NCBI GenBank assembly: GCA_046760305.1
Contig: JBHIDX010000005.1
Span: forward strand, 12,150 to 76,149
Direction of reading: 5' to 3'
Source: Candidatus Aminicenantales bacterium
Lineage (GTDB): Bacteria > Acidobacteriota > Aminicenantia > Aminicenantales > Aminicenantaceae
Length of the DNA stretch: 64,000 bases
Part shown: piece by piece, positions 370-15,433 of the stretch
How the letters are laid out: each line of letters starts with the position of its first letter
Numbering within the stretch: position 1 is the stretch's first letter
Notes under the pieces: model-generated
Told to the model about the DNA's origin: nothing
Databases searched by the model: none
The model's input: only the letters and a program-made list of their open reading frames with translations
Translations under genes and position numbers: made by a program

Positions 370-416
370 GATAAAAAAATCTTTATCTACAATAAAGGCT
401 GAAAGGAGGTTCGGCC

Positions 417-1154
417 ATGACAAGATTACCGATAGCGGCAATGGCTGTTTTCCTCGCTGCTTTTCTTGCGCTGTACGGTCAGCAGAAGTTCGAAGAAGAT
501 GTCATTTCAACCTCTGGCGGTGAGTTAAAGATTGCTTTTATCGGTCATGCAACCCTGATTTTCGAGTTTGGAGGAAAGGTAATCCATGTTGACCCTGTAA
601 GCCGTTATGCTGATTATGGAAAGCTGCCTCGAGCAAACATCATCCTCGTCACTCATGAACACGGTGACCATTTTGACCCGCAAGCAATCTCCCTTATCCG
701 TACTGAAAAAACAGATATTATTCTAACCGAGAAATGTGCGGAGAAGATCAGAGGAGGAACCATAATCAGGAACGGAGAGAGAAGAGTCGTTCAGGGAATT
801 CCGATTGAGGCTGTTCCTGCCTACAACATCGTCCATAAGCGGAGAAGCGGCATTCCCTTTCATCCCAGGGGAGAAGGAAACGGCTACATCATCACTTTTG
901 CTGATAAAAGAGTCTATGTGGCCGGCGATACAGAAAACACCCCTGAAATGAAAAAGATAAAAGATATCGATATTGCCTTCCTGCCCATGAATCTTCCCTA
1001 TACCATGACTCCGGAAATGGTGGCCGATGCAGCTAAAGCCTTCAGGCCTAAAATCCTCTACCCCTATCACTACGGGAACACAGACACCTCCAGGCTTGTC
1101 CTCCTTCTTAAAGACGAAAGAGAGATCGAGGTTCGTATGCGGAAGATGAAATAG
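417..1154 (+). CDS. MBL-fold metallo-hydrolase with N-terminal signal/TM
   Basis: HEHGDHFD motif (HxHxDH metallo-beta-lactamase signature). Hydrophobic N-terminus. RBS-like aaaggagg upstream. Confidence 0.8.
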   Translation: MTRLPIAAMAVFLAAFLALYGQQKFEEDVISTSGGELKIAFIGHATLIFEFGGKVIHVDPVSRYADYGKLPRANIILVTHEHGDHFDPQAISLIRTEKTDIILTEKCAEKIRGGTIIRNGERRVVQGIPIEAVPAYNIVHKRRSGIPFHPRGEGNGYIITFADKRVYVAGDTENTPEMKKIKDIDIAFLPMNLPYTMTPEMVADAAKAFRPKILYPYHYGNTDTSRLVLLLKDEREIEVRMRKMK

Positions 1155-1156
1155 GC

Positions 1157-2710
1157 TCAATCGTTGAGGACTGAGGTCCACAGGTCTTCTCTTATGTAAA
1201 GAACGAGGAGTGTTTCTGGCCTGAGTCCGTAGTATTCAGGCTGATATCTTTTTCCAAGGACAAGATTCAGTTTTTCCGTAAAAGCGGTAGAGGAGATGAT
1301 GAGAGGTACGCCTCGCAGTTCTCCGGCCTCATTCACATCCTGCCAGTATCCCACCCGGCTGAATCCCCTCAGGTACCAGGGAAGAGGCCAGGCTTCATCA
1401 GGTGTGGTTATTATTTTTATCAGCATCCTTTTGCCCTCTGGGTGGTGAAGGGCGACATCATTGATTCTCCTTACCAGGTTCAGAAAATCACGGCTTGTCT
1501 GCGCATAGACATAGGGGTTGCGGGGATCGGATTCATATTTTAAGTTGGCGCGGTAACTCTGAAGGCCAAGGTGAAAAACACCCACACAGAGAGCGGAAAT
1601 AACAACGGTCTGAAAAAGGAGACTTTTTGCCGCTCTCAGAATAAAAGAAACTCCGCAGCCGGCGAGAAGGATGACCCCGAGATAGAAAGGAAGCATATTC
1701 CAGGGAGTTTTGTAAGGAATCAGAGAAAAAGAAACTGTTGTGAAGAGCGTGTAGAAGAAAAGAAACCTGGAGAGTGGGTGGCTGCTGTTTTCTTTACGAG
1801 GTCCAGTCGAGAAAGCAGCCACACATCCAGCAAGAGCCATGCCCAGGATAAGGGCTTCGCTCCACACAGGGCCTGAGCCGTATCGGGAGAGGCCGAGCAT
1901 TTTCAGGTAATAGTACCAGGGATGAGCATGAATTCCAGCCGCTGTCGTTTTCCTAAAATAGGAGAAAAATGCAAGAAAAGAATCCACGAAACCGCCCGGG
2001 TTCCGGAAAAATGATGAGTAAAAAAGAAAGGAGATAGAAAGAGCCACGGTCAAAAATACCGAGAGATGGAGAAAGGATGATTTCAGAGAAATTTTCCCCA
2101 GCGCCTCTTCTCGTGCGGAGGTAAGCCGGGTGAAAACAAGTGAGGCAATAAAGGCGGTGAAGATAATAACGCTCGTTTCTTTAGTGGCATACATCATCCC
2201 GAGGAAAAAGCCGGTGGCGGCTGCCCAACCCAGACTCCTGCTTCGGGCATAACGCCAGCCGCTGGCGATGGCGCCCAGGGCAAAGAAAAAAAGAAGCATC
2301 TCCTGGATGTAGAACCTGCTGTAAAAAACCAGAGCAGGTGAGAGGGCAGCGAAAAGTGCGGAGAAGAAAATCTCTTCTGAATTAAATCCTCCTTTAAAAA
2401 GAAGGAGGAGTAAGATTGCGCCTGTACCGAAGAAGCCTGTTACCAGACGCAGGGTTTTCTCGTTTAAAGCAGCAAATGAACTACCTGAGCTCAGCCAGGC
2501 AAAGGGAATGGTGAGGTAGTAGAGGGTAGGGCCATGGTGTTCATGCTTATCATAGCGGTATTCGCCTTTTTCCAGAAGGTTACCGAATTTGACAGCCTGG
2601 TTAGCTTCGTCGTGATGCATGGGCCGCAGGTCAAGCTTTACCAGCCTGAAAATCAGTGCGGCGCAGAGAACGAGGAGAAAAAAAAGGTAAAAAGTTGTTT
2701 TTTTCTTCAT
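1157..2710 (-). CDS. Polytopic membrane glycosyltransferase, family 39 / ArnT-like (phospholipid-carrier-dependent)
   Basis: About 12 predicted TM helices. The N-terminal loop with R..HHDEANQA..G..L and the YYLT segment is typical of GT39/PMT_2-type enzymes. ATGA start/stop overlap with the upstream discoidin gene. Confidence 0.65.
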   Translation of the reverse strand: MKKKTTFYLFFLLVLCAALIFRLVKLDLRPMHHDEANQAVKFGNLLEKGEYRYDKHEHHGPTLYYLTIPFAWLSSGSSFAALNEKTLRLVTGFFGTGAILLLLLFKGGFNSEEIFFSALFAALSPALVFYSRFYIQEMLLFFFALGAIASGWRYARSRSLGWAAATGFFLGMMYATKETSVIIFTAFIASLVFTRLTSAREEALGKISLKSSFLHLSVFLTVALSISFLFYSSFFRNPGGFVDSFLAFFSYFRKTTAAGIHAHPWYYYLKMLGLSRYGSGPVWSEALILGMALAGCVAAFSTGPRKENSSHPLSRFLFFYTLFTTVSFSLIPYKTPWNMLPFYLGVILLAGCGVSFILRAAKSLLFQTVVISALCVGVFHLGLQSYRANLKYESDPRNPYVYAQTSRDFLNLVRRINDVALHHPEGKRMLIKIITTPDEAWPLPWYLRGFSRVGYWQDVNEAGELRGVPLIISSTAFTEKLNLVLGKRYQPEYYGLRPETLLVLYIREDLWTSVLND

Positions 2711-3393
2711 CTGGCCGCTAAGCCGTAAACCTCCACTTCCACATAGTGGTTCATATCATTTGAAGTGTTTCCCCTGCTGTAGAGCCGCACATATCTTGCC
2801 TTCACTCCCCGGGCGTCGATGAGACGGCCCTCGTATGTTTCTATATATTCTTTGTCCTTTCCGATACCAAGGCCGGCAGAGTTGTCGTGGTCGTTGTTGA
2901 AGAGGGTTGTTACAGCGGTGATAAAGTCCGGATCATCAGAGACCTGGACAATTACATCCCGGTAGACACGGGCCTGGCTGTGGTAGTGCCAGACGAGAAT
3001 GACATGGAGGTTGAAAGATTGCCCGAGATCAATCTGCACCCACTGCACGCCCGGGCCGAGCTCGACGTAATATCCTTCTTCGCCCGATTTTTCCCCATCT
3101 GTCACGTATTCAAGCTCGCCGATAACGGGTTCGGTGTCGCTGGCTGTCACCCTTTTTCCCAGCGAAAGAAGCTCTGTGCCCTGGGGAACAAAGAAAGGCC
3201 CGCGGGGTTTTCCGGTTATTTTTTCAAGGTTCGGGCTTCGGATATTCCTCGGAGTGCCGACAAACATCGGCTTGGGAAGTTCCAGCTTGAGTTCTACTTT
3301 TTTCTTTTCTTCCTGGAGGCTTATTCCTCCTCCTAGAGAAAAAGAGATAAAGAAGACCACCGAAATGATAATAAACAGCATCTTTTTTCTCAT
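2707..3393 (-). CDS. Secreted discoidin (F5/8 type C) domain protein
   Basis: Signal peptide followed by a galactose-binding-like domain. The WVQIDLG...YVRLY...VEVEVYG pattern is characteristic of F5/8-C domains. Confidence 0.6.
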   Translation of the reverse strand: MRKKMLFIIISVVFFISFSLGGGISLQEEKKKVELKLELPKPMFVGTPRNIRSPNLEKITGKPRGPFFVPQGTELLSLGKRVTASDTEPVIGELEYVTDGEKSGEEGYYVELGPGVQWVQIDLGQSFNLHVILVWHYHSQARVYRDVIVQVSDDPDFITAVTTLFNNDHDNSAGLGIGKDKEYIETYEGRLIDARGVKARYVRLYSRGNTSNDMNHYVEVEVYGLAAR

Positions 3394-3403
3394 CCCTCAC
3401 TCC

Positions 3404-4315
3404 TTATTCAAAAACCTCAAACCTTTCAGGGTCGATGATAACCATGGCCCATACCTCTGGATGCTCACAGCAGAAAGCCCTAACCTCTTCGGTACTCATG
3501 GCCATGAAGGCTGTGCTCAGGGCGTCAGAGACTGCGGCCGAAGGGTGTGAGGCCCAGGCAGCAAGATGGCCTGAGGCTGTTTCTCCTTTTCTGGGATCGA
3601 AAATATGGCTTCCCTTGACCTCAGTACCTGAACCGCTCAGGGCCCTGTCCTTGAGCAGAAATTCTTTCTTCATCTTTTTAATTTTCCATTTCCCGCCCAC
3701 TCCTACCATCCATCCCTCTCTCTCAGAAGAATTATGGGCTGGAGAGCCTAGAGCAAGGGCTGTGCTCGTTCCTGCGTGGAGAAGAGCCCGCTCGAGGCCC
3801 CAGTCAGAAACTATTTCCGCTGCTCTATCGAGGGCAAACCCTTTTCCGATTCCGCCGAGGTCAATACAAGCTCCCTGGCCTTCTTCTTTTTTAAAACGAG
3901 GTGAGTACTTCAATCTGAATCCCCTCCAGGTGCGGCTGAGTTCTATTGACTGCAGACTACCAGCCTTATCAACGGGGAGGGCTTTATCTTTTTCCTCTTT
4001 GTATGTTAACAGAGAGGCGAAGGAGATATCAAAAGCTCCCCTGGTTTCAGACCAGATACTGAGTGCTGTTTTTAAACATTCGTATGTTTCGACTCCAATC
4101 ATCAGACTCTGTCCGGGTTTGAGGAGGTTTATCTGGCCTATTTCACTGCAGGGGTCAAACCTGTTGAAGAGTCTCTCGAGTCGGTCAACCTCAGCAAAGA
4201 CGGCCTGTGAAACCTGGCGTGCGTACTCCTCGTCACCGCCTGGGGTCAGGAGCTCAAATGTTGTTGCCATGGAAAAGTGGGAAAAGCGGAGAACTCTGAC
4301 CTCTTTTTTTCTCAT
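3404..4315 (-). CDS. apbE: FAD:protein FMN transferase (ApbE family)
   Basis: ApbE hallmarks MATTFEL, IDLGGIGKGFALD and SGSGTEVKGSHIFDPRKG. Length about 300 aa. Confidence 0.85.
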   Translation of the reverse strand: MRKKEVRVLRFSHFSMATTFELLTPGGDEEYARQVSQAVFAEVDRLERLFNRFDPCSEIGQINLLKPGQSLMIGVETYECLKTALSIWSETRGAFDISFASLLTYKEEKDKALPVDKAGSLQSIELSRTWRGFRLKYSPRFKKEEGQGACIDLGGIGKGFALDRAAEIVSDWGLERALLHAGTSTALALGSPAHNSSEREGWMVGVGGKWKIKKMKKEFLLKDRALSGSGTEVKGSHIFDPRKGETASGHLAAWASHPSAAVSDALSTAFMAMSTEEVRAFCCEHPEVWAMVIIDPERFEVFE

Positions 4316-4959
4316 CCGTGGTTTTCCTCAAAAAACGACAAATAGAAAAAGGCAATGGCTGAAAGCAAGGCAACAAGACCACTGTACTCGTGGGCTCTGA
4401 AAATATCAATCTCAACACTCAGAGCAAAGAGGGGAAGCATGAGGCTTAAGGCGGTTAGGATCTGGGTCAGTCCACACAGAGTAAAAATCCAGAAGGCTGC
4501 ACACAGCCTCAGGCCTGAGGTGCTGGTTTTATCGTCAGGAGACTTTTCATCGAACCTGTAGAAGCGGGCCCTGAGCACGACCACTGCCCCAAGGGAGAGA
4601 GCAAAAAGGCTGCCGAAAAAAACATGCAGCACCAGGAATATGCCTGAGAGCCTCAGACCTCCCACAGCCGGCACCATACCGCTCAGCACCAGGTAGGAGA
4701 AGCTTCCTGCCAGGGTGAAAAAAATCCATCTCTGCTCCCGAGGATAACTGAGCTTGAGCCAGTCTGAGAAGTGCCTCACCGCCTTTTTCCTGCCCTCATT
4801 TTTAAAGAGGTCCGCTGTTGTGCGCCAGAGCCAGGAGGGATAGGTGAGGAGAAAAGACCTTGAATTTCTGACAGCGGAAAATTGTCTTTTTCTGAAACGC
4901 AGGAAGGTGAGGATGAGAAGAAGTCCGAACAAAGAGGCTGCAGTGATAAGGCCGAACAT
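4312..4959 (-). CDS. Polytopic membrane protein with conserved His residues, possibly a b-type haem or quinone-interacting anchor
   Basis: Four to five TM helices with His residues in or near the membrane (LHVFFG, RAHEYSG). ATGA overlap with apbE. Lies immediately downstream of the multihaem cytochrome. Confidence 0.4.
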   Translation of the reverse strand: MFGLITAASLFGLLLILTFLRFRKRQFSAVRNSRSFLLTYPSWLWRTTADLFKNEGRKKAVRHFSDWLKLSYPREQRWIFFTLAGSFSYLVLSGMVPAVGGLRLSGIFLVLHVFFGSLFALSLGAVVVLRARFYRFDEKSPDDKTSTSGLRLCAAFWIFTLCGLTQILTALSLMLPLFALSVEIDIFRAHEYSGLVALLSAIAFFYLSFFEENHG

Positions 4960-4965
4960 GAGGGG

Positions 4966-7296
4966 CTATCTCCTTTTCTCGATGAGTCCTGATAATTTTC
5001 CGATTGACAGTAAGAAGAGGAGGAAAACAACAGTTCCGATCACAGTTGCCGAGATAAAAAGGGCTGTCTTCAGGAGAGGCCTCAGTCTGAAGGAGAGTCC
5101 GAATAATTTCTGGTAAGGTTTGCTGAGGCCCATCAGCGAATGGCCTGAGATCTTAACCGGATTCTGTATTTTAAGCGCTCCCACTGCTCTTACCTTATGA
5201 AAAAAAAACGATGAGTTTGCTGAGTGACAGTCCCTGCAGCCGCTGCTTCCCAGGGACTGCTGGGCTGGCCGCACGTGGTGAGCCAGAGGCCAGACAACAG
5301 GCCCTGCTGCCCTGTGTTTGAGTGAGATGAGATCTCCTTCAGGGCCCAGCCTGAACATCCTCCCTCCGGAGACATAGAAAAAGAAAGAGGAGGGGGAAGA
5401 AGCGCTGTTTTTTTTCTGCCGGGAAAGAGAATCGAGGATGAGTTTTACCTGTTCTTCAGTGAGCGTATATTCTGTGCCCACAGTAGAAACAACTGTCCTC
5501 ACCTGGAAATTTGAGACAAGGGGCATTGTCCCTTCTTTAACCACCCAGACCAACTCCGGGTAATCTTTTGCTTTCCTGGGCGCTGGCTTCTTTTCAAGAT
5601 AGCCATCCTTAATCACGTAGAGCACATCTCGGCACAGCAGGGCAGGAGGGCCAGGGACTTCCTCCATTTTTTCCAGAGCGTCGAGCACGCTGAGGATGAT
5701 TTCCTCCACCCCAGCCTCTGATTCCTCGCTTTTGGGGTCGAACTGAGGGATTAAAGGACTTATTTTTCCTTCTTTCTTTACTCCCCACCAGGTATCAGCT
5801 CTTAAAGGCTGCGGCACAAGAGAAGAGACGTCAAGCCTGCCATCCACATTCGGCTCGTAAGCTTTTCCCCTGGCGACAAAAACCGGGATTCCCTCAAGCT
5901 CAGCGTAGAGGGCAAGAGCAGTGAGGATACGCACCACTTGCTCCTCGGCATAAAGAATATCTCCACCAGCCTGGCGTATGTCTGAGGGTGGGAGGAGCGT
6001 AATTTTTTCCCCATCCGAGAGGCCCCAGAAAGCGGGCCACATTAATCGGTGGGGATGGATTTTACCTGAACTATCTTTTAGATAAACAGGCTCGAAGATG
6101 TAGGGCATTTCGGTCGACCAGCGGGCAATGCCGTAAATACCGAGACGATTAGCACGCGAGGTGCGCACTCTCACTGGACTCTTGGCCGGTCTGAAGCCAG
6201 CGTGGCACACAGTGCAGGATAGCCTCTCGAAATGCACAGCCGGAATTCCCCGATGACGCGGATAGGGTGCACCCAGCCGTCCGGTTTCGGAACGACTCTT
6301 CCTGGCCAAGTTCCTTCCCATGTGACATCCCTGGCAGGTGAATTCAGCCGCATCCTCCCTTCCGTAGCCAGCATATTCTGCCTCATAGCCGCGTATCATG
6401 TTATGACTTATGTCATTTCGGTGGCAGTCTACACATTCCTTTCCAGCGGCTGAATGAACATCTTCTACGGCTGTGAATTTTTTCGACCCTGCTCTTGAGA
6501 CTGAGTGACAGGTAAGGCATCGGCTGTCATCAGGTTCTCCGCTGATGTCAAAGAACACACGATGCTGGCTGTCAAAGTGCCAGGTTTTGTACCTTACATA
6601 GGGAACAACAGCCCATTCTGTATCATCAGGATTTGGCCCGTCGATTATATCCCATGTATCTGGAAGGCGGGAGGCCATGCCTCCTACCTCCCCCAGGCCT
6701 GAAGCAGCCGTTGCTGCCCAGCGGAAATTCTGGCGGAGCACCTGTTTGGCCCATTCACTGTGGCTCTGGATCCTGGAGGCGTTATGGCAGGCCATGCAGT
6801 TTATTTCAAGTTTTCCAGAAACATTCCAGCGGGATTCAGGGCTCACTTCCTCACTCGGCTCACCAACTCCACCGCCTGCCATGTGTCTTCCGAAAAGGAG
6901 AGTGAAATTCCAGGGACTCAGCCCTACATCCTCGGGATTCCATACTCCTGGCCAGTTATGGTAGGAGAGGGGAAGGATGGTTCCTGTTTTTGGCTCAACC
7001 CAGACCCATGGCTCTCCTGGCCGACCGTCCTCAGGAGAGGAAGAAGCATTGAAGTGAAGACCCTGGTTGATAAGCTCATAGTCATGACAGGGGGCACAGG
7101 TAAAGCGGGTTGAATAAGGCAGGGGGTAAGGAAGGGTGGGAACGATGAGCTGGTCAAACTCATCCCTGAGTTGAATGAGGTGAACCGGGGTGGTACGGCT
7201 TCCATCCCAAGCCTTGGTTTTCTGTTGACACAACAATGTGCTCCCATCCACAACAAGGGGAAAGAAAAGGATGAGATAAATAAATTTTTTTTTCAT
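4966..7296 (-). CDS. Multihaem c-type cytochrome (7 CxxCH) with N-terminal signal peptide and C-terminal TM anchor
   Basis: CxxCH motifs CAPCH, CMACH, CLTCH, CVDCH, CQGCH, CTVCH and CRDCH. Cleavable signal peptide. Hydrophobic C-terminal helix. Start overlaps (ATGA) the stop of the upstream Gfo/Idh/MocA gene. Confidence 0.85.
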   Translation of the reverse strand: MKKKFIYLILFFPLVVDGSTLLCQQKTKAWDGSRTTPVHLIQLRDEFDQLIVPTLPYPLPYSTRFTCAPCHDYELINQGLHFNASSSPEDGRPGEPWVWVEPKTGTILPLSYHNWPGVWNPEDVGLSPWNFTLLFGRHMAGGGVGEPSEEVSPESRWNVSGKLEINCMACHNASRIQSHSEWAKQVLRQNFRWAATAASGLGEVGGMASRLPDTWDIIDGPNPDDTEWAVVPYVRYKTWHFDSQHRVFFDISGEPDDSRCLTCHSVSRAGSKKFTAVEDVHSAAGKECVDCHRNDISHNMIRGYEAEYAGYGREDAAEFTCQGCHMGRNLARKSRSETGRLGAPYPRHRGIPAVHFERLSCTVCHAGFRPAKSPVRVRTSRANRLGIYGIARWSTEMPYIFEPVYLKDSSGKIHPHRLMWPAFWGLSDGEKITLLPPSDIRQAGGDILYAEEQVVRILTALALYAELEGIPVFVARGKAYEPNVDGRLDVSSLVPQPLRADTWWGVKKEGKISPLIPQFDPKSEESEAGVEEIILSVLDALEKMEEVPGPPALLCRDVLYVIKDGYLEKKPAPRKAKDYPELVWVVKEGTMPLVSNFQVRTVVSTVGTEYTLTEEQVKLILDSLSRQKKNSASSPSSFFFYVSGGRMFRLGPEGDLISLKHRAAGPVVWPLAHHVRPAQQSLGSSGCRDCHSANSSFFFHKVRAVGALKIQNPVKISGHSLMGLSKPYQKLFGLSFRLRPLLKTALFISATVIGTVVFLLFLLSIGKLSGLIEKRR

Positions 7297-8663
7297 GTTC
7301 GAAAATGCTCTGGCCGGAATTTAAACATGCGTCTGTTTTTAACCACCTCGTTAGCCTTAAGCACAGCTACGGCTGTTTCATACCCCACTTCAGCCGGGCA
7401 GTTCAGCGGTGTGCCGTGGATGATGGCGTTGAAGAAATTTTCAAGATGTGGCTGGTGAGGCGGCTTTGCCAGCTCCACGGGCAGAGGCCATCGTCCCGCC
7501 TCAGCCGTCACTCTCACATCGAGGAAAATGTTCTTTGTCTCCAGTTTCTGAAGAGGAGGTTTTTCGGATTTGAGAAGTCCGAGCCTCACCAGAGAATCCC
7601 ATTCAGGCGCATGTGCTTCCCGCATAGCCCAGTTTCCCCTTTGAGGCACTTCGGAAATGACGAGGGAACCGTTATCTCCCATGAAGGCTTCGTAAAAACC
7701 CCCATGCTTGGTCGTGGTCTGAACCTGGTAGAAGGCACGTACACACCGCTCACCTGTCTCAAACTCGTAGATGGTCATGACATTGTCATACCATTCCCTG
7801 TCCGGGTAGTAATCGCGTCCGCCGCTGGCTATTACTGCCGATGGGTTTTTTCTCATCACCCAGCTGAAGAGGTCTATCTGATGTGAACCGAGGTCAACCA
7901 GGGGACCTCCGCCGTATTTTTTAAACCAGCGCCAGTTTCTGAACTCAACCATGGAGCGGTAGCCGTATTTGGCGAGTTTTTCTGGGCTGATGGTGTATTT
8001 TTTCGGCCAGCCGAGCATGTCGCTCCTGGCTCGGCACCACTGGGCATAGAGGGATGTAATCTGTCCGAGAAGCTTATGTTCATGGATAAGGCGTTCGATG
8101 GCGTGGATGTAGCGGGGATTGCTGCGGCGCTGGTGCCCGATCTGGAGAAGTTTTCCTGTCCTACGAGCTGTCTCGACCATCGACCTCGCCTTTTCGAGGG
8201 AGTTGGACATCTCTTTCTCGCAGTAGACATGGAGCCCTGCTTCAAGACAGGCGTCAGTGTGTTCGGCATGCATCCAATCAGGGGTGGCGACGATGACAGC
8301 ATCGAGGTTCTTTTCGCTGGTAAGCATCTCCCTGTAGTCCTCGTAGACATTCACCTCGTAGCCGTATTTTTTGAGGTACTGACTTGCATACCTCTGGCTG
8401 TATTCCCAGATGTCGCATACAGCTACAATCTGCACCGTGGGGATGCGGAGGCATGAGTCGATTAAAACCCTGCCCTGTACCCCGGCGCCGATGATGGCCA
8501 CTGCCAGCTCGGCTGATTTCTTCTTCTGCGGAGCGCTTCCTCCCGGAGGACGGACAGCCGCCTTTCCAGCCAGGGCAACGCCAAGGCTGGCCGAGGCCGA
8601 GCTTTTGAGAAAATCCCTTCTTGTCAATTTTCTTATCTTACCCTTATTTTTTAAGCTGGACAT
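7293..8663 (-). CDS. Tat-exported Gfo/Idh/MocA family oxidoreductase (glycoside 3-dehydrogenase-like)
   Basis: Twin-arginine signal TRRDFLKSSASASLGVALA. Rossmann motif IGAGVQG. Gfo/Idh/MocA C-terminal domain. Confidence 0.85.
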   Translation of the reverse strand: MSSLKNKGKIRKLTRRDFLKSSASASLGVALAGKAAVRPPGGSAPQKKKSAELAVAIIGAGVQGRVLIDSCLRIPTVQIVAVCDIWEYSQRYASQYLKKYGYEVNVYEDYREMLTSEKNLDAVIVATPDWMHAEHTDACLEAGLHVYCEKEMSNSLEKARSMVETARRTGKLLQIGHQRRSNPRYIHAIERLIHEHKLLGQITSLYAQWCRARSDMLGWPKKYTISPEKLAKYGYRSMVEFRNWRWFKKYGGGPLVDLGSHQIDLFSWVMRKNPSAVIASGGRDYYPDREWYDNVMTIYEFETGERCVRAFYQVQTTTKHGGFYEAFMGDNGSLVISEVPQRGNWAMREAHAPEWDSLVRLGLLKSEKPPLQKLETKNIFLDVRVTAEAGRWPLPVELAKPPHQPHLENFFNAIIHGTPLNCPAEVGYETAVAVLKANEVVKNRRMFKFRPEHFRT

Positions 8664-8687
8664 TTTCCCCTTCTTTATATTTTGAGT

Positions 8688-9677
8688 TTATTTTTTCATT
8701 TCTTTATCGAAGGCAATCTCTGAAGGAGAAAAGTTTATGCTTCTTATGAATTCGAGCGATTCCTGGGCACCGAATTCACGCTCCATTCCGTTGTCTTCCC
8801 ACTCAACTGAGAGAGGGCCTTCGTATCCTATCTCATTCAGGGCCCGGATTATTTCCTCGAAGTTAACGTCACCATGTCCCAGGGAGCGGAAATTCCATCC
8901 CCGCCTTATGTCACCAAAGGGGAGATGGGAGCCGAGAATTCCAGCTTTTCCGTCCAGGTTGAGAGCCACATCCTTCATGTGGGTGTGGTAGATGCGCTCA
9001 GGGAATTCGAGGATGAAGAGATGAGGCTCCATTCCCTGCCAGAGAAGGTGGCTGGGGTCAAAGTTAAGTCCGAGTGTTGGTCTGTGGTCAAAGACCTCGA
9101 AGAGGCGCTTTGTTGTGTAGAGGTCAAAAGCAATTTCAGTCGGATGGACCTCGAGGCCGAATTTTACCCCGCAGCGCTCGAACTCATCAAGAATTGGCGT
9201 CCAGAGCTCGTGAATCTTCCTGAACCCTTCTTCGACCATTTCCTCGGTTGTGGGCGGGAAAGAATACCAGAACTTCCAGATCGGAGAGCCCATGAAACCG
9301 TTGACCACCGAACAGCCCATGTTTCTGGCAGCTCTGGCCGTATGCTTCATCTCCTCGATGGCCCATTCGCGGATCCGGTCGGGTTTACCCTTCACCTCCT
9401 CAGGCACAAACACATCCAGACGCTCGTCATACCTGTCGCCGACACACTGACCGGCAAGATGGGCGCCCAGGGCCCAGCATCTCAGATTGTTTTTTTCGAG
9501 CATCTTCTTTTTTCCCTTTACATAATCCCCGTCTTCAGATGCTTTGCGCACCTCCATGTGGTCTCCCCAGCAGGCGATTTCCAGGCCCTCATAGCCCCAG
9601 CTGCCGGCTTTCTTGCACATCTCAGTAAAAGGCAGATCCGCCCACTGGCCTGTAAATAAGGTCACAGGTCTTGCCAT
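8688..9677 (-). CDS. Sugar phosphate isomerase/epimerase (xylose-isomerase-like TIM barrel)
   Basis: AP-endonuclease-2 / xylose-isomerase-like fold signatures (GYEGLEI, HxKD, EWED). Start set at the internal ATG at 9677, which has aaggagg 7 nt upstream; the longer ORF would overlap the next gene by 46 bp. Confidence 0.8.
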   Translation of the reverse strand: MARPVTLFTGQWADLPFTEMCKKAGSWGYEGLEIACWGDHMEVRKASEDGDYVKGKKKMLEKNNLRCWALGAHLAGQCVGDRYDERLDVFVPEEVKGKPDRIREWAIEEMKHTARAARNMGCSVVNGFMGSPIWKFWYSFPPTTEEMVEEGFRKIHELWTPILDEFERCGVKFGLEVHPTEIAFDLYTTKRLFEVFDHRPTLGLNFDPSHLLWQGMEPHLFILEFPERIYHTHMKDVALNLDGKAGILGSHLPFGDIRRGWNFRSLGHGDVNFEEIIRALNEIGYEGPLSVEWEDNGMEREFGAQESLEFIRSINFSPSEIAFDKEMKK

Positions 9678-9700
9678 GGCTTCCTCCTTGGTATGAATGA

Positions 9701-10873
9701 TTAAAAATCTATCCAAACAGCGCCTTTTTTGGAACTCTCGACGCACTTTTCGATGAACTTCACACCGCGCACTCCCTCCTCGACGTGGGGATAATCCAGC
9801 TCTTCTTCGCTCAGCGATTCGCCTCTAAGCTTTTTGCTCAGAGCCTGACAGAAGGTGGAGTAAATGTTGGCGAAGGCTTCAAAATACCCCTCCGGGTGAC
9901 CGGCAGGGATGCGTGAGAAGCTCTGGGCCTGGGGGTAAAGAGTGTCGCGTCCGCGTGAAATTATTTCAGCAGGCCTTTCCAGGTAACAAATACGGGCATA
10001 ATTGGGATTTTCCTGGCACCATTCGAGCGAACCTCTGGTTCCGTAGATTCTGACTCTGAGTCCGTTGTCGTGGCCGACTGCGATCTGTGAACTCCAGTAA
10101 AGGCCTTTTGCTCCACCTTCATAGTTAACAAGAATTGAAGCGTTGTCATCCAGCACTCTACCCTCGACAAAAGTGTCAAGGCGGGCGCAGAGCGAGCTGA
10201 TCTTCAATCCGCTGAGATAAGAAACCATGTTCTCAATATGACTCCCGATGTCTCCGACACAGTTTGAGATACCCGAGCGGGAAGGGTCTGTTCTCCATTC
10301 AGCCTGCTTCTGACCTGTTTTCTCCAGCGCGGTGCTCAACCATTCCTGGGGATATTCAGCGTTAACGAACCTGATGTTTCCCAGCTCTCCCTTAGCAACC
10401 ATTTCTCTCAAATGCTTGACCAGTGGATAACCTGTGTAGGTGTAAGTGACGCAGAAAAGAAGTCCTTTTTCCCCCGAGAGACGCTCGAGCTCCTCTGCTT
10501 CCTTGCTGCTGGTAGTGAGTGGCTTATCGCATACAACGTGAAAATCATGCTCGAGAGCAAGTCTGGAGATAGAATAGTGTGAATCATTAGGGGTGACGAT
10601 GACCACGAAGTCAATCCCATCCTCCCGTCCTGCTTCTTTGCGGAACATTTCTTCAAAGGAAGAGTAAAGACGCTCCTCGTCCAGTCCAAGGCTTTTCCCG
10701 GTGGCGAGAGTGTTTTCATAATTCCTCGAAAAACAACCGGCAACCAGCTTTGCCTTGCCGTCCATGGCAATTGCCTTGCGGTGCACATCTCCGATGAAGG
10801 CACCCTGGCCGCCGCCGACCATGCCGTAGGTGAGCGTGGTCTTCCCCTTACCGCTTGCACTTGCCTCGATCAT
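9701..10873 (-). CDS. Gfo/Idh/MocA family oxidoreductase (cytoplasmic, no signal peptide)
   Basis: GMVGGGQGAFIG Rossmann motif and family-typical C-terminal domain. No Tat or Sec signal. Confidence 0.85.
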   Translation of the reverse strand: MIEASASGKGKTTLTYGMVGGGQGAFIGDVHRKAIAMDGKAKLVAGCFSRNYENTLATGKSLGLDEERLYSSFEEMFRKEAGREDGIDFVVIVTPNDSHYSISRLALEHDFHVVCDKPLTTSSKEAEELERLSGEKGLLFCVTYTYTGYPLVKHLREMVAKGELGNIRFVNAEYPQEWLSTALEKTGQKQAEWRTDPSRSGISNCVGDIGSHIENMVSYLSGLKISSLCARLDTFVEGRVLDDNASILVNYEGGAKGLYWSSQIAVGHDNGLRVRIYGTRGSLEWCQENPNYARICYLERPAEIISRGRDTLYPQAQSFSRIPAGHPEGYFEAFANIYSTFCQALSKKLRGESLSEEELDYPHVEEGVRGVKFIEKCVESSKKGAVWIDF

Positions 10874-10895
10874 GGACCACCTCCTTTTTATGTTC

Positions 10896-13721
10896 TCATT
10901 TTTTTAACTCTTTTTCTATCTTTTCCACAGCAGCTCTAGCCTCCTCCTCCACTCCTTCCTCTTCAACCAGGGAGCGGGCGAACTCAAGCGCCTCCTGGCA
11001 GGGAAAGATAGGTAGAATGCTGAGCACCAGCTTTTTTTCCTCCATCCGTGCCAATCCCATGGTGTTTTTAAGCTCCCTGACTGCATGTTGTGGCAAGCGG
11101 TAGGGCTCAAGGCCAATCATCCTGATGTAGGCTCTAAGGGCGAGGAACTTGAGGACTTTGTTTTTTAATTTCAGGCTCAACTCGAGCAGGTCTTCTTTTG
11201 GAGTGGTGGTAGGCCAGTCAGCCAGAGCACGTATGGCAGCCTCTCTTTCTTCAGGCGTCCCACTTGACACAGCCCTGCGGAGAGAGGGGAGAGAGCTCTC
11301 ATCTCCAATTCTGCCCAGAACTCTGAGCAGAGCGCAGCGGTCGCTTATGTCCGCTGTTGAATCAAGCGCTTCCACCACTGGCCGTGCGCGGCCAGGCCCT
11401 CCTTTTTGCTTTCCAGCCACAGCAGCAATTGTGTTGGCCATTTCTTCTCGTTCTTTTTCCTGAGTTGAAGCAAGCATTATATCTACCAGATGTGGAAGGT
11501 GGGCAGGAGTGGCAATGTTTTTAAGAGATTTTATGGCCTGAAGCCGGATTTCAGCCTCTGAGAAGCGAGCCCGGGAAAGAAGTAGGCTTATCCCCTCCTT
11601 AATCCGTCGTTCGCCGATGGAGCGGATAAGCTCCTGCCGAACACGTGGGTCAGGCAGTTTAATAAGGTTTAAGAGAATCGCTCTCTCAACTTCTTTCCCG
11701 GGCAGCCAGTCGAGGCTTTCCCGGGCCGCCTTCTTTTCTTCTCCAGAACTCAGCGCAGCGCCACGGGCAAGGAGTTCTACGGTGGAGTAGTCACCGAGAG
11801 TTTTAAGGGCTCTTAAGGCAGCTACCCTCACCTCCTTTTGCTTGCTCTGTGCCGCCTGGACAACGGATGAGAGCACTCCAGGTTTGCGGTAGCCGGAGAG
11901 AACTTCGAGCAGCATGACCTGGCTTGAAGGGGGGAGAGAGGGAAGCAGAGCGCTTACAGCCTCTATATTTTCGAGGTCAAAAAAATCCCTGATGAGGGTT
12001 ATAGCTGGTTGGTGCCATTCGATATTCTTTCCTTCCAGTGCTCTGATTATTATCTCCGAGGCGTTAGCGGCCGAAGATATTTTTCCTCTCATGGCAGCCT
12101 GACGAAGGTTGAGGGGAAGTTTCGAGGATATGAGTGCTTCATACATTCTTGAAGCTTCCTCGCTCTTCCCGGCTTCAAGGCGGTTCTCGGCACATTTAAG
12201 CACAGAAGAAGCAACGACTGCTTTTACTTCGCCTGAGGTTTTGTTCATATTTTTGAGGAGAAATTCTGCTGCCTGCGCAGTTCCCACCTGGCCCATCGCT
12301 CTGGCAGCAGCAGCGGCTGTCTCAGGCTGAGCGCCGCGGAGCAGCTTTGAAAGCTGAGGCAGCGAATTCTCAGACTTTCTGTTTCCCAGAGAAGAGATGA
12401 TACCCAGCCTCACTTTCCCTCTGCTTTTTGAAAGCGCCTTTATGAGTGCCTTGGCTGCATCCTGACCGGGAATTTTTTCTAGAGCATACCTTGCAATGTC
12501 AGACGTTTGGAGATGAAGCAGCATTTTCTCCAGCCAAGGAACAGAGAGCGAGGTGCCGATTTCTCTTAACTGCCGCGAGGCTGCCATTTTTGCTGCCAGG
12601 GTAGCATCTGACGCAAGAAAATGGGCAAGGCGTGTCTCACATTCTGCTCTGGATTGAGGTGAATTGCGGTGAGCTCTCACATAGTCCCTGAGCCGGGAGA
12701 GTATTTCTTCGTCCTGACCGTATTCGTAGCTGGCAAGCTCTTTTAGTATTTCCTCCAGCCTCTCAGGCCTGAAATTCTTCCATCGCCTGACATCATCAGG
12801 AGTGCCCGATTCGCGGTAGAGAGCTGGAAAATCTCCTGGTACTTTCTGGGTTACGCTGCCCGTGGCTGCCCATTCTGCACCGCGCTGGAAAGTGACGATA
12901 AAGCCCACGCATTCCATCGATGGGGGATGTTTTTCTCCCATGGCATGGCCAAGGACTGTATGGAAGATTCTCCCCTTACCATACCTGACCGTGAAAAGCA
13001 CTGGTTCATGCCTCCCTGTTCCCAGCTGAGCAGGGTCGCTGTAGGCTGTGGCCAGGACATGAACCTCTTCAGCCGGCCCGCGCAGGAGACTGTAGAGTTC
13101 GTCTCTGGCATGCATCCATCTCTCAGGCAGTCCCCTGGTGATAGGATGAGAGGAGTCACGGTTGACGACCACAAAAGCGTGCTGGTAGCCGTGGTAGCCG
13201 GCAATCCCGGGACTCTTATCCCTGACAATTCTCCCCTTTTCCCAGTAGAGATAGGGTCCGGTAGATTCATCGCGGTTTCCCCATCCCCCTAGCCCTATGA
13301 TTCTGTTGTATTCCTTCCACTGGGGGAAAGAATTGTCAGCCGCGTGGTAGACGACAACACCTCCACCCTGTCTGACATAGCGAACAAATGCCTCCTGGGT
13401 AGAAGAAGACCAGGCATCTCCGTTGTAATCGAGGACAACTACCTGGTAGGAGTCAAACTCGGGCCTGAAAAGGGACATGTCCTTTCCCCTGGGAGGGCTG
13501 GCCGCCACCTCCACCTCAAACATACCCGTCTCCTCTAATATCTTTTTAAGGATGGAGCTGCTTGTCTTCCAGTCGTGATTGTTCTGTCCCGTGACAATCA
13601 GTGCCTTAAGAGAAGAGGCTGAAAGTGGTGAAGAAAAGGATGCCCAAAAGAGAAGGGCCAGGATAATGGGGGTGAGAATGAATTTTGTTTTTTTTGCTTT
13701 TTTTATGCCCATTTTATTCAC
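10896..13721 (-). CDS. Secreted ThuA-like domain protein fused to a long HEAT/PBS-lyase repeat region
   Basis: Sec signal. N-terminal ThuA (trehalose-utilisation, GATase1-like) pattern ALIVTG..H.......VVVLDYNGD......GGGVVVYHAADNSF. C-terminal 600 aa of HEAT-like repeats (ARYALEKIPG, RVRQELIRSIG). No CxxCH. Confidence 0.75.
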   Translation of the reverse strand: MNKMGIKKAKKTKFILTPIILALLFWASFSSPLSASSLKALIVTGQNNHDWKTSSSILKKILEETGMFEVEVAASPPRGKDMSLFRPEFDSYQVVVLDYNGDAWSSSTQEAFVRYVRQGGGVVVYHAADNSFPQWKEYNRIIGLGGWGNRDESTGPYLYWEKGRIVRDKSPGIAGYHGYQHAFVVVNRDSSHPITRGLPERWMHARDELYSLLRGPAEEVHVLATAYSDPAQLGTGRHEPVLFTVRYGKGRIFHTVLGHAMGEKHPPSMECVGFIVTFQRGAEWAATGSVTQKVPGDFPALYRESGTPDDVRRWKNFRPERLEEILKELASYEYGQDEEILSRLRDYVRAHRNSPQSRAECETRLAHFLASDATLAAKMAASRQLREIGTSLSVPWLEKMLLHLQTSDIARYALEKIPGQDAAKALIKALSKSRGKVRLGIISSLGNRKSENSLPQLSKLLRGAQPETAAAAARAMGQVGTAQAAEFLLKNMNKTSGEVKAVVASSVLKCAENRLEAGKSEEASRMYEALISSKLPLNLRQAAMRGKISSAANASEIIIRALEGKNIEWHQPAITLIRDFFDLENIEAVSALLPSLPPSSQVMLLEVLSGYRKPGVLSSVVQAAQSKQKEVRVAALRALKTLGDYSTVELLARGAALSSGEEKKAARESLDWLPGKEVERAILLNLIKLPDPRVRQELIRSIGERRIKEGISLLLSRARFSEAEIRLQAIKSLKNIATPAHLPHLVDIMLASTQEKEREEMANTIAAVAGKQKGGPGRARPVVEALDSTADISDRCALLRVLGRIGDESSLPSLRRAVSSGTPEEREAAIRALADWPTTTPKEDLLELSLKLKNKVLKFLALRAYIRMIGLEPYRLPQHAVRELKNTMGLARMEEKKLVLSILPIFPCQEALEFARSLVEEEGVEEEARAAVEKIEKELKK

Positions 13722-13739
13722 CTTTTGACGCTCGTTTTC

Positions 13740-15044
13740 TCAGAGGCCGAGCTGCCAGGGACTCCTGTAGGAGCGTCCTAGCAGGCGCGCTGCCTCCGCA
13801 TCGCCGATAATTTCCTCCTTTTCCGGATTAAAACGAATCTTGCGCCCCAGTTCCATGGCTATCCCACCCAGATGACCGACACTTGCTGAGCGGTGGGCGA
13901 CTTCGATCGGAGTTATCGTCTGCCTCCTGCTTTTCACGCAGTCGAGAAAATTCTGGTAGTGGTCCCTGCTTCTGTAGAGACGAATCTCATTCGGTCCGAT
14001 TCGTTCATTGAGAATCTCCTGAGGATGAGCCTCAAGTCCTCCTCGGTTAACCCAGATCCACCCGTATTCTCCTATCCATTTTGTGCCAGGTCGAATCTCT
14101 TCGTGTCCGCCCGCAATATCCATCGGCGTGCCGTCTGCGTACCTGGCTTTAAGGTAGTAACGGGTGGGACTGTTCCACACGCCCCGCCTCGGGAATTCGC
14201 CCCAGCCCTCGATCTCAACAGGTCCGGTGAGGTCAAAACCCAGACCCCAGTGAGCAATGTCGACATGATGGCCGACCCAGTCCATGAGCTGGCCGCCGCC
14301 AAAATCCATGACCCAGCGCCAGTTCCTGTGCACCTTTGCCGGACAGTAAGGCGAATAGGGAGCAGGTCCCACCCAGAAATCATAATCGAGTTCTGAGGGA
14401 GGAGGCCCTATTTTCTCCTGCCCTTTTGTCCCGGCAAAGTCATAGTGACCTGATGGAAGTCCAACCTCGACTTTGAGAATCTTCCCCATGCGGCCGTTGC
14501 GGACGAGCTCGCAGGCGTGATGGAAGTTTTCCACTGAGCGCTGCCAGCTTCCTGTCTGCCAGATGCGGCTGTAGCGCTTTACTGCCTCACACATTGCTCG
14601 ACCCTCGAGGAGGCTGTGGGAGAGAGGCTTTTCGCCGTAAATATCAAATCCTGCGCGGGCACACTCGATAGCAGGAATGGCATGCCAGTGGTCTGGCAGA
14701 GCGATGGAGACAGCATCTATGTCAGTTCGCTGGCAGAGCTCCCTGAAATCCTTGTAGGTGGCACAGTCTCTGTTGCCGTACTTCTGGTTTACGATATCCC
14801 GGGCTTGGCGCAGGTGGTTTTCGTCCACGTCACACACTGCTACCCATTGAACCTCCTTTTTTTCCAGGAAGGCTTTCATGTTGGGAATGCCCATCATGCC
14901 AAAGCCGATGCCGGCCATGACGATGCGGTTGGAAGGAGGAACAGCCTTTCCCTTCCCCAGTACCGGAGAGGGAATGATGGCAGGAGCGGCAAAAGTTCCG
15001 GCCGCTGCCAGGGAAAGCTTTTTCAAAAAATCTCTTCTCTTCAT
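13740..15044 (-). CDS. Tat-exported Gfo/Idh/MocA family oxidoreductase
   Basis: Twin-arginine signal KRRDFLKKLSLAAAG. GIGFGMMG Rossmann motif. Gfo/Idh/MocA C-terminal domain. Confidence 0.85.
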   Translation of the reverse strand: MKRRDFLKKLSLAAAGTFAAPAIIPSPVLGKGKAVPPSNRIVMAGIGFGMMGIPNMKAFLEKKEVQWVAVCDVDENHLRQARDIVNQKYGNRDCATYKDFRELCQRTDIDAVSIALPDHWHAIPAIECARAGFDIYGEKPLSHSLLEGRAMCEAVKRYSRIWQTGSWQRSVENFHHACELVRNGRMGKILKVEVGLPSGHYDFAGTKGQEKIGPPPSELDYDFWVGPAPYSPYCPAKVHRNWRWVMDFGGGQLMDWVGHHVDIAHWGLGFDLTGPVEIEGWGEFPRRGVWNSPTRYYLKARYADGTPMDIAGGHEEIRPGTKWIGEYGWIWVNRGGLEAHPQEILNERIGPNEIRLYRSRDHYQNFLDCVKSRRQTITPIEVAHRSASVGHLGGIAMELGRKIRFNPEKEEIIGDAEAARLLGRSYRSPWQLGL

Positions 15045-15433
15045 CCCTTTCTCCTTATTCTTATTCTGCTTATTGTTGTTTGGCTAACACAACTGATTGA
15101 TAATAAATAAAATAAATCTATTTTGAGCCCTTTTTTAGCCCTTAGAATGCATTTTTTGGCCCTGAATCGGTGTTCTAACACATTTCTTCTTATCTAATGC
15201 TAATGTTTTTTCAGCTTAAGTGTCAATTCTCTTTGATGAGCATCCGCAATTCCATGACAATTATGCTCTGAAAAAGCCCCTTCCCCAGTTCATCTTTCGG
15301 TGTTTGTGCAGAGGACGGAGCCTCACCCCGCCCCATGCACTTATTTTATTCATTATAATGGATTTGAGATGTTTGGGTATCTTTGTTATATGCGGATCAG
15401 GCAGCGAAAAGGAACGGAATTATGAGAGAGCTT

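Follow-up and report, generated by a model that had tools for sequence, protein, structure and literature searches.

The 64,000-nucleotide (nt) stretch of a Candidatus Aminicenantales genome analyzed here (contig JBHIDX010000005.1 of assembly GCA_046760305.1, positions 12,150 to 76,149; hereafter, the window) carries a run of ten genes, from position 15044 down to 1157 on the minus strand, that encodes three oxidoreductases that belong to the Gfo/Idh/MocA family (GFOs), a TIM barrel with the xylose isomerase fold, a seven-haem c-type cytochrome and several additional membrane and secreted proteins. As the preferred but still tentative reading, we propose that this operon serves to oxidize a sugar or glycoside in the periplasm, probably at position C3, yielding a keto-sugar, that the electrons pass through the cytochromes to the membrane, and that a pair of cytoplasmic enzymes salvages the keto-sugar. 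A sequence-only reading had assigned the segment 7293-15044 to a pathway of oxidative glycoside cleavage via 3-keto intermediates. The chemistry implied by this label is partly right, several of the roles it assigned are wrong, and its extent is incomplete.

The five genes on which that reading was built, two GFOs exported by the route of twin-arginine translocation (Tat) (hereafter, TatGFO-A and TatGFO-B), a cytoplasmic GFO, the TIM barrel and a ThuA-domain protein, are all present at 7293-15044, all on the minus strand and with confirmed borders; they are spaced by 18-24 nt, with 23 nt separating the cytoplasmic GFO from the corrected start of the TIM barrel. The end at 7293 is no true border because five further genes, spaced by -4 to +10 nt, follow on the same strand as far as 1157. 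The ten genes, with gaps of -4 to +24 nt throughout, form one operon, of which 7293-15044 is only half. The half that had been missed encodes the multihaem cytochrome, a cytochrome b, an ApbE protein, a lectin-like protein and a GT-C protein, and shifts the likely logic of the system from redox-neutral cleavage to electron export. The features of the operon, from its 5' end, are as follows:

15197..15226, minus strand: putative operon start, a sigma-70-like promoter match (TTGACA-18-TAGCAT, 10/12 matches; consensus match only)
13740..15044, minus strand: TatGFO-A, Tat-exported Gfo/Idh/MocA oxidoreductase, 434 amino acids (aa), N-terminus MKRRDFLKK, domains PF01408 and PF19051
10896..13721, minus strand: ThuA+HEAT secreted protein, 941 aa, with a Sec-type signal peptide
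9701..10873, minus strand: cytoplasmic Gfo/Idh/MocA oxidoreductase of the 3V5N type, 390 aa, no signal peptide
8688..9677, minus strand: cytoplasmic TIM barrel of xylose isomerase fold, 2ZDS clade (PF01261, 143 bits)
7293..8663, minus strand: TatGFO-B, Tat-exported Gfo/Idh/MocA oxidoreductase, 456 aa, N-terminus LTRRDFLKS, Pfam TAT_signal
4966..7296, minus strand: seven-haem c-type cytochrome, 776 aa, with a signal peptide, seven CxxCH motifs and a membrane helix at the C-terminus
4312..4959, minus strand: cytochrome-b-like small polytopic membrane protein, 215 aa (PF01292, E 1.9e-4, below the cutoff)
3404..4315, minus strand: ApbE-family (flavin transferase) protein (PF02424, 127 bits)
2707..3393, minus strand: F5/8-type-C (discoidin, galactose-binding-like) protein, membrane-anchored or secreted (PF00754, 30.8 bits; PF22633, 29.2 bits)
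1157..2710, minus strand: Agl23-like/PMT_2 GT-C membrane protein, the last gene of the operon (TIGR03663, 208.7 bits against a cutoff of 126.25)
1156..1175, minus strand: terminator-like hairpin at the end of the GT-C gene (pattern match only)

The promoter match is the best one in 900-15600; it resides in a 390-nt gap 5' of TatGFO-A, the only place in the operon region where a promoter-like site is seen. No RNA element or riboswitch 5' of the operon was detected by Rfam search of positions 1-24000.

The linkage of these genes was assessed in two scans, with metagenome-assembled genomes (MAGs) and metagenomes as the source data throughout and with neighbors counted only at those loci where the contig extends far enough. 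The first scan, with one genome per species, yielded 80 loci with TatGFO-A proteins 66-83% identical, nearly all from Aminicenantes/Acidobacteriota MAGs. The gene directly downstream of TatGFO-A encodes the HEAT protein in all 70 testable loci, with a fused ThuA domain in 15 of 63 and none in the remaining 48; within 9 kb, the cytoplasmic GFO is found in 31 of 45 loci, the TIM barrel in 29 and TatGFO-B in 18. The second scan, a profile search of metagenomes for the cytochrome, added 80 further, independent loci with cytochromes 50-63% identical. Here, the cytochrome gene is directly preceded by TatGFO-B (58 of 61 loci) and followed by the cytochrome-b-like gene (71 of 72), accompanied by ApbE (57/60), the F5/8-C protein (46/52), GT-C (43/48), the TIM barrel (45/47) and the cytoplasmic GFO (37/39), as well as by TatGFO-A (15/26) and HEAT (16/26). 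The gene order of the window recurs in these cytochrome-centered loci, and the enzymes of the operon are strongly conserved, with median identities of 70-76%. Evidently, the grouping of these genes is not due to chance.

The operon is modular because blocks of its genes recur separately across loci. The block comprising the cytoplasmic GFO, TIM barrel, TatGFO-B, cytochrome, cytochrome b and ApbE is also found alone, 6 kb from TatGFO-A; a variant lacking both TatGFO-A and the cytoplasmic GFO exists; and, where the cytochrome module is absent, F5/8-C and GT-C directly follow TatGFO-A and HEAT (loci L043, L060 and L084). Four modules can be delineated: TatGFO-A with HEAT, with or without ThuA; the cytoplasmic GFO with the TIM barrel; TatGFO-B with the cytochrome, cytochrome b and ApbE; and F5/8-C with GT-C, with or without a glycosyltransferase of the GT2 family.

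In the third of these modules, the stop codon of TatGFO-B overlaps the start of the cytochrome gene by 4 nt (ATGA) at this locus, the same 4-nt overlap is found in 49 of 61 loci, and the two genes lie within 13 nt of each other in 57 of the 61. The Tat motif RR-x-F (R15, R16, F18) is invariant in 22 homologs of TatGFO-B, and all seven CxxCH motifs are invariant in 15 homologs of the cytochrome. The cytochrome contains transmembrane segments at residues 5-23 and 745-763 and matches the Pfam family Cytochrome_C7 (30.9 bits against a cutoff of 24.8); a sequence search of the PDB identified no relative. Its non-haem C-terminal domain (residues 420-665) is modeled by AlphaFold as repeated beta-hairpin/helix units, at a predicted local distance difference test score (pLDDT) of about 90; a Foldseek search of the PDB retrieved nothing similar to it at E<=1e-3. 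The cytochrome has 1443 close homologs that are labeled only "cytochrome c3 family" or "hypothetical", and a profile search delineated 881 clusters at 50% identity, with only the N-terminal haem domain common to the wider family. The individual families represented in the operon are known; the cytochrome family is uncharacterized. The small membrane protein encoded next shows a weak resemblance to the b561/Ni-hydrogenase cytochromes b and has about five hydrophobic segments.

TatGFO-A appears to be a distant sibling of the BT2158/AL3 glycoside 3-dehydrogenases. Its top family match is the BT_2158 glycoside 3-dehydrogenase (NCBIfam NF058561, 155.2 bits), and its best matches in the PDB are the AL3 entries 8tdf and 8tdh (8tdf, E 2e-26 over residues 36-279). 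The active-site residues of AL3 are Gln161, Arg192, Trp195, Asp248, His252 and Tyr349 (Nasseri 2024, bioRxiv 10.1101/2024.03.25.586180). In the alignment with 8tdf, the Gln that contacts NAD and the catalytic Asp...His pair are identical in TatGFO-A, and the EKP motif is conserved. TatGFO-B also matches BT_2158 best among the NCBIfam families (100.5 bits over profile positions 1-266, against a cutoff of 750), followed by IolG (89.6) and UDP-GlcNAc 3-dehydrogenase (87), and is similar to DgpA in the Rossmann part only (E 2e-21).

The cytoplasmic pair comprises the TIM barrel and the 3V5N-type GFO. The TIM barrel gene, given as 8688-9746 in the list of open reading frames (ORFs), actually begins with the ATG at 9677: an AAGGAGG ribosome-binding site precedes this codon, and the alignment of the product with 2zds starts at residue 1 of the latter. 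The protein begins with MARPVTLF and has neither a signal peptide nor a hydrophobic segment. A phmmer search of the entire PDB retrieved, in an end-to-end alignment, 2zds, an uncharacterized Streptomyces protein (E 1e-109), and 8ro4, the 2-hydroxy-3-keto-glucal hydratase AtHYD (168 bits, E 2.4e-48 to 2.7e-48, about 33% identity), which is the sole strong characterized relative of the TIM barrel; beyond these two, only three unrelated TIM barrels score at E<=1e-3. The alignment with 8ro4 also runs end to end (query residues 20-326, chain residues 26-332), and the two proteins share the E/D/H/E metal-site motifs (EVHP/ELHP, DPSH, HxKD and EWE). The top NCBIfam match, IolE, scores only 43.5 bits. 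The lyases AtOGE, AL1/BT1, CarBC and DgpBC produced no match to the TIM barrel either in the PDB (E<=1e-3) or in NCBIfam (E<=0.01). From this sequence evidence, the TIM barrel is best read as a candidate AtHYD-like hydratase/isomerase rather than a lyase, and the role of bond-breaking lyase or hydrolase given to it in the sequence-only reading is not supported for a cytoplasmic, hydratase-like protein that matched no known lyase or C-deglycosidase in these searches.

The structures closest to the cytoplasmic GFO are 3v5n (E 1e-118), 3dty and 7d5m, all three uncharacterized and the first two described as such in the literature; its top NCBIfam match is levoglucosan 3-dehydrogenase (97 bits, cutoff 650). 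The pairing of these two proteins extends well beyond Aminicenantes. A plasmid of Agrobacterium sp. T29 encodes a TIM barrel that shares 72.6% identity with 8ro4 and, 22 nt downstream, a GFO whose full-length identity to the cytoplasmic GFO of the operon is 47.7% (32.5% for the two TIM barrels); next to this pair are genes for a LacI regulator and for a sugar ABC transporter, along with another TIM+GFO pair. Homologs of the pair in Agrobacterium, Azospirillum and Phaeobacter reside within clusters of sugar ABC transporter, LacI or ROK genes, and the pair in Gemmatirosa (49% and 52% identical) adjoins a sugar-binding regulator and a GH78 rhamnosidase. In Agrobacterium, AtHYD is reported to be a hydratase and the Gfo of its operon an NADH-dependent 3-ketoglucose reductase (Bitter et al. 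2023, PMC10628242); a literature search found no paper on 8ro4, 2zds or 7d5m. The cytoplasmic GFO is proposed to be a keto-sugar reductase, and the pair is best read as a hydratase/reductase back end, consistent with the suggestion of the sequence-only reading that a second GFO reduces the product.

The proposed pathway would thus consist of an outer and an inner part. TatGFO-A, with its HEAT/ThuA partner, and TatGFO-B would be exported folded, with NAD(P) bound, and would dehydrogenate a hydroxyl of a periplasmic sugar. TatGFO-B would not rely on a second sugar for its re-oxidation, the mechanism proposed for BT2158, but would pass electrons to the co-translated, membrane-anchored seven-haem cytochrome, which would relay them, via the small cytochrome-b-like protein in the membrane, to the quinone pool. 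The keto-sugar, or a 2-hydroxy-3-keto-glycal, would enter the cell, where the AtHYD-like TIM barrel would hydrate or isomerize it and the 3V5N-type GFO would reduce the product back to an ordinary sugar.

The reference systems for the outer part are BT2158 and AL3, which are Tat-exported, hold a non-exchanging NAD and stall in vitro until a 3-keto-sugar re-oxidant is added (PMC8121099; bioRxiv 10.1101/2024.03.25.586180). How the tightly bound cofactor of such a Tat-exported glycoside 3-dehydrogenase is re-oxidized has been called unresolved in both studies: Liu et al. (PMC8121099) proposed an unidentified second sugar as the re-oxidant, whereas Nasseri et al. (bioRxiv 10.1101/2024.03.25.586180) named cytochromes as one possibility. 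Neither this operon nor a link between a Tat-exported GFO and a multihaem cytochrome was found described in a literature search of incomplete coverage. A bolder claim, which we consider possible but doubtful, is that TatGFO-B, the seven-haem cytochrome and the cytochrome-b-like protein constitute an undescribed respiratory complex, in which the NAD(P)H permanently held by a Tat-exported "nicotinoprotein" sugar dehydrogenase is re-oxidized by a dedicated multihaem cytochrome, possibly via a flavin that the signal-less ApbE installs in the cytoplasm. The opposite direction of flow, from quinol via the cytochrome to bound NAD+, was rejected on standard redox potentials, menaquinol being far too weak a reductant for NAD+.

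In its overall plan, such a complex would resemble formate dehydrogenase-N and the periplasmic [NiFe] hydrogenases, which share a three-part organization, with a Tat-exported catalytic subunit, an electron-transfer subunit anchored in the membrane by its C-terminal helix and a small cytochrome b. This is an analogy only: neither the catalytic nor the electron-transfer subunits are homologous, and haems c take the place of Fe-S clusters and NAD(P) that of the metal centre. The GFOR of Zymomonas mobilis, likewise a Tat-exported member of the GFO family with tightly bound NADP in a periplasm without a free NAD pool, is similar to the operon proteins at a low level and in the Rossmann domain only (E about 1e-6 to 1e-12). 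GFOR recycles its cofactor via a second sugar in a ping-pong mechanism, whereas, in the operon, the co-translated multihaem cytochrome is the candidate acceptor.

Among the closely comparable systems that act on keto-sugars is the oxidize-eliminate-hydrate pathway of BT2156-BT2160 and Alistipes AL1-AL5 (PMC8121099; Nasseri 2024), which also employs a Tat-exported GFO as the oxidant, a second, cytoplasmic GFO and a TIM barrel of xylose isomerase fold. That pathway includes a DUF1080 protein, a secreted TIM barrel lyase (AL1/BT1) and a SusR-type regulator, all of which are absent here; the operon adds the multihaem cytochrome, cytochrome b, ApbE, HEAT, the lectin-like protein and GT-C, and it has its TIM barrel in the cytoplasm; the GFOs align over no more than the N-terminal ~245 residues, with scores of 155 and 100 against the cutoff of 750. 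The GlycDH-AtOGE-AtHYD-Gfo system of Agrobacterium tumefaciens (PMC10628242) shares with the proposed pathway periplasmic oxidation followed by a cytoplasmic hydratase and an NADH-dependent 3-ketoglucose reductase. There, however, the periplasmic oxidation is carried out not by a GFO but by a GMC enzyme that depends on FAD and has a Tat hitch-hiker subunit; that system also includes a distinct beta-eliminase (AtOGE) and sugar ABC transporters, which have no counterparts here, and the TIM barrel of the operon is a member of the uncharacterized 2ZDS clade. The 3-keto-glycoside logic of the sequence-only reading is supported at the level of families, by the AtHYD-like TIM barrel, its GFO partner and the BT_2158/AL3 match, but not with respect to the lyase, the role of ThuA or the extent of the system.

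Several observations weigh against the scheme of oxidation, electron export and salvage. The score of TatGFO-A is far below the NF058561 cutoff of 750, and only positions 1-265 of the 487 in the profile are aligned; of the AL3 active-site residues, Arg192 is replaced by Ser and Trp195 by Tyr, and the region of Tyr349 is unaligned, where the AL3 numbering was carried over with an inferred offset of +29. For TatGFO-B, the inositol dehydrogenase score of 89.6 bits is near that for BT_2158, both below their cutoffs, and the AlphaFold model, built from a shallow alignment, is unreliable (mean pLDDT 48.6). The haem domain of the cytochrome is modeled at pLDDT below 50 and is unusable, and the assignment of the cytochrome b is weak, its E value of 1.9e-4 falling short of the Pfam cutoff and only two His residues being conserved in membrane segments. 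A flavin or a similar converter is normally required for a hydride to pass from bound NAD(P)H to haems, which are one-electron carriers, and no converter between two-electron and one-electron transfer was found among the operon proteins. Extracytosolic flavinylation by ApbE targets the motif [S/T]GA[S/T] (Meheust 2021, PMC8238504), which is not found in any of the ten operon proteins. Furthermore, systems of this type employ a secreted or lipidated ApbE acting on a motif-bearing substrate (PMC8238504), whereas neither the ApbE of the operon nor any of seven orthologs has a signal peptide or lipobox. A sugar transporter, a regulator, a glycoside hydrolase, a DUF1080 protein and a secreted lyase are all absent from the operon and from the 64-kb window, in which nothing identifies either the substrate or the enzyme that would cut a glycosidic bond. 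A respiratory keto-sugar model also leaves without a role the conserved genes for the lectin-like protein, GT-C and GT2.

The latter genes are the mainstay of the strongest alternative, which we nevertheless regard as unlikely: that the operon makes or remodels an envelope glycan. By analogy, a GT2 enzyme, present in relatives, would load a sugar onto polyprenyl phosphate, the Tat-exported GFOs would oxidize or epimerize the lipid-linked or surface sugar, passing electrons via the cytochrome and cytochrome b to quinone in a DprE1-like manner, and the Agl23-like GT-C would then move this sugar onto an acceptor that the lectin-like F5/8-C protein holds. The GT-C protein aligns with TIGR03663 over positions 4-431 of 435, and the F5/8-C protein, which has a hydrophobic N-terminal segment at residues 6-24, shows a median identity of 73% among loci. 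These two genes close the operon in most of the testable cytochrome loci and directly follow TatGFO-A and HEAT in the three loci mentioned above that lack the cytochrome module. At L088 (16163-16903; 246 aa) and in at least 31 of the loci L091-L170, a small GT2 gene directly follows GT-C; its product resembles the polyprenyl-phosphate sugar synthases PpgS, AglJ and Dol-P-hexose transferase, with scores below the respective cutoffs. The missing transporter, regulator and glycoside hydrolase, the housekeeping neighborhood and the very strong conservation of the enzymes all fit this reading as well. The window itself has no GT2 counterpart anywhere in its 64 kb, and no nucleotide-sugar enzymes are linked to the operon; the homologs of the cytoplasmic pair belong to catabolic sugar-uptake clusters in cultured bacteria, and the Agrobacterium pair acts on free keto-sugars; GT-C and GT2 might merely glycosylate secreted proteins of the complex. 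In mycobacteria, DprE1 and DprE2 together with GT-C arabinosyltransferases present a similar combination, the oxidation of a sugar hydroxyl feeding menaquinone, a coupled reduction and a GT-C that uses a polyprenyl-phosphate sugar. DprE1 is a flavoenzyme and DprE2 an SDR, neither homologous to the operon proteins, so this analogy bears on the envelope-glycan scenario only.

Compared with electron export, a redox-neutral cleavage of the BT2156-2160/ThuAB type, with a Tat-exported GFO and ThuA oxidizing the glycoside, the TIM barrel cutting it as a lyase, a second GFO (or the same enzyme) reducing the product and the cytochrome genes being bystanders, is close to what the sequence-only reading envisaged and seems rather improbable. 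It draws on BT_2158 as the best family match of both Tat-exported GFOs and AL3 as the best PDB match of TatGFO-A, on the overlapping activities of TIM barrel lyases and hydratases in the BT/AL system, and on the fusion, in this genome, of ThuA to the obligate partner of TatGFO-A. It is difficult to reconcile with compartments, the sole TIM barrel being cytoplasmic and the Tat-exported GFOs periplasmic, with the match of this TIM barrel to a hydratase and to none of the lyases at E<=1e-3, and with the translational coupling of TatGFO-B and the cytochrome, which is hard to square with a bystander.

The ThuA domain itself argues against this scenario. It spans residues 39-261 (nt 12939-13607; PF06283, 103 bits against a cutoff of 33.4), and the remainder of the protein (nt 10896-12791) consists of about 630 residues of HEAT/PBS-lyase-like repeats (HEAT_2, 130 bits), with neither a CxxCH nor a flavinylation motif. 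Across the loci, HEAT is an obligate partner of TatGFO-A and ThuA is dispensable; the HEAT-only orthologs retain the signal peptide. The structure nearest to the ThuA domain is 4e5v, a secreted protein from Bacteroidota (E 8e-102), and the domain is 57% and 48% identical to the products of stand-alone genes in Parabacteroides and Runella, neither of which lies beside GFOs, compared with 26.7% identity to a cytoplasmic ThuA-domain protein of rhizobia. In a BLASTP comparison, none of the three GFOs of the operon was similar to the GFO partner of this rhizobial ThuA, a pair whose identity with the characterized ThuAB is unverified. The rhizobial ThuA/ThuB trehalose 3-dehydrogenase resembles the operon in that a ThuA-domain protein is encoded beside a GFO, but differs in that the ThuA domain here is secreted, fused to HEAT and of the 4e5v subfamily. 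The ThuA/ThuB logic of the sequence-only reading is not supported for this locus. The comparison with characterized enzymes that had been suggested there turned up relatives of BT_2158/AL3 and AtHYD, at scores far below the family cutoffs, but neither CarBC or another lyase nor a ThuA of the rhizobial type; for three of the four enzymes, the best matches were not to inositol dehydrogenases or unrelated isomerases.

Even less probable is a periplasmic dehydrogenase of a free monosaccharide or an inositol-like cyclitol, with the TIM barrel acting as an IolE-like dehydratase/isomerase and the cytoplasmic GFO as a second dehydrogenase. The close IolG and BT_2158 scores of TatGFO-B, the IolE match of the TIM barrel, the missing lyase and the grouping of the 3V5N clade with scyllo-inositol/L-glucose dehydrogenase (PMC5969746) are compatible with this interpretation. 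Against it, the score of the TIM barrel for AtHYD (168 bits) far exceeds that for IolE (43 bits), the neighborhood contains no other iol genes, and every score is far below the equivalog cutoffs.

The least probable interpretation, in which the genes for the cytochrome, cytochrome b and ApbE encode a functionally separate system of electron transfer (for example, an extracellular or periplasmic one) and have only the transcript in common with the sugar oxidoreductases, can point to TatGFO-A with HEAT but no cytochrome in about 60% of the loci, to cytochrome blocks without TatGFO-A and to a missing cofactor bridge between NAD(P)H and haem, but is countered by the near-constant company of TatGFO-B, the TIM barrel and the cytoplasmic GFO, a linkage whose tightness across such divergent cytochromes is typical of the subunits of one system.

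Returning to the proposed oxidation and electron export, the oxidize-eliminate-hydrate route of sugar breakdown was worked out only in 2021-2024 (PMC8121099; PMC10628242; bioRxiv 10.1101/2024.03.25.586180), and the operon is a concrete candidate answer to how an exported GFO could be re-oxidized in a compartment without free NAD. If the coupling is real, it would establish a new link from sugar oxidation to the electron-transport chain, assign a function to an uncharacterized cytochrome family of about 880 sequence clusters and revise the view of the widespread Aminicenantes of sediments and the subsurface as purely fermentative users of sugars. Should the three proteins indeed form a complex, anaerobic Aminicenantes could conserve energy from periplasmic sugar oxidation. 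Even if the coupling is not real, the locus shows that HEAT is obligatory, and ThuA dispensable, for this subfamily of Tat-exported GFOs, and that the AtHYD-like TIM barrel and the 3V5N-type GFO constitute a conserved two-gene module across four phyla.

Sister genomes show additional variation around TatGFO-A. Two extra genes, missing from the window, lie directly 5' of it at many loci (L001 7364-9789; L007-L010, L028, L030, L038, L042, L048 and others). The first encodes a TIM barrel with a Tat signal (310 aa) that resembles hydroxypyruvate isomerases and keto-sugar epimerases, and the second a third GFO with a Tat signal (438 aa). This TIM barrel was considered as a secreted lyase acting beside TatGFO-A in the sister genomes and rejected, as it is not AL1/BT1-like. 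At L008, L009 and L010 (for example, L009 9802-12444), a secreted protein of 857-880 aa is inserted between ThuA+HEAT and the cytoplasmic GFO; an NCBIfam search with it came back empty, and by eye it has a CBM9-like N-terminus and an outer-membrane-barrel-like C-terminus.

The other 49 kb of the window are occupied by housekeeping genes, namely, split glutamate-synthase-like genes, glmS, nadE, ligA, murB and aroA, and an ABC-2 exporter; a polysaccharide-utilization locus was rejected for this reason. Directly 5' of the operon, at 15434-22505 on the minus strand, four genes resemble those of a glutamate synthase that is split in the archaeal style and supplemented by an additional, unusual flavoprotein. 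Their products are an 810-aa protein in which a glutamine-amidotransferase domain is fused to a GXGXG domain, two paralogous proteins with the glutamate-synthase FMN domain, each with an N-terminal 4Fe-4S ferredoxin module, and an FAD-linked oxidase of 601 aa that carries an Fe-S domain at its C-terminus. On the opposite side, at 417-1154 on the plus strand, a secreted protein of the metallo-beta-lactamase fold (245 aa) is encoded convergently with the operon end, its stop codon 2 nt from that of the Agl23-like gene. Three ORFs of 410-413 aa further along the window (26302-27534, 34909-36141 and 54706-55947) have no Pfam match at E<=1e-4. The G+C content is 0.50-0.53 over the operon and the glutamate-synthase-like genes (1-20000) and mostly 0.42-0.48 in 22000-64000, except for about 0.50-0.51 at 48-52 kb, and the sign of the GC skew flips near 20 kb.

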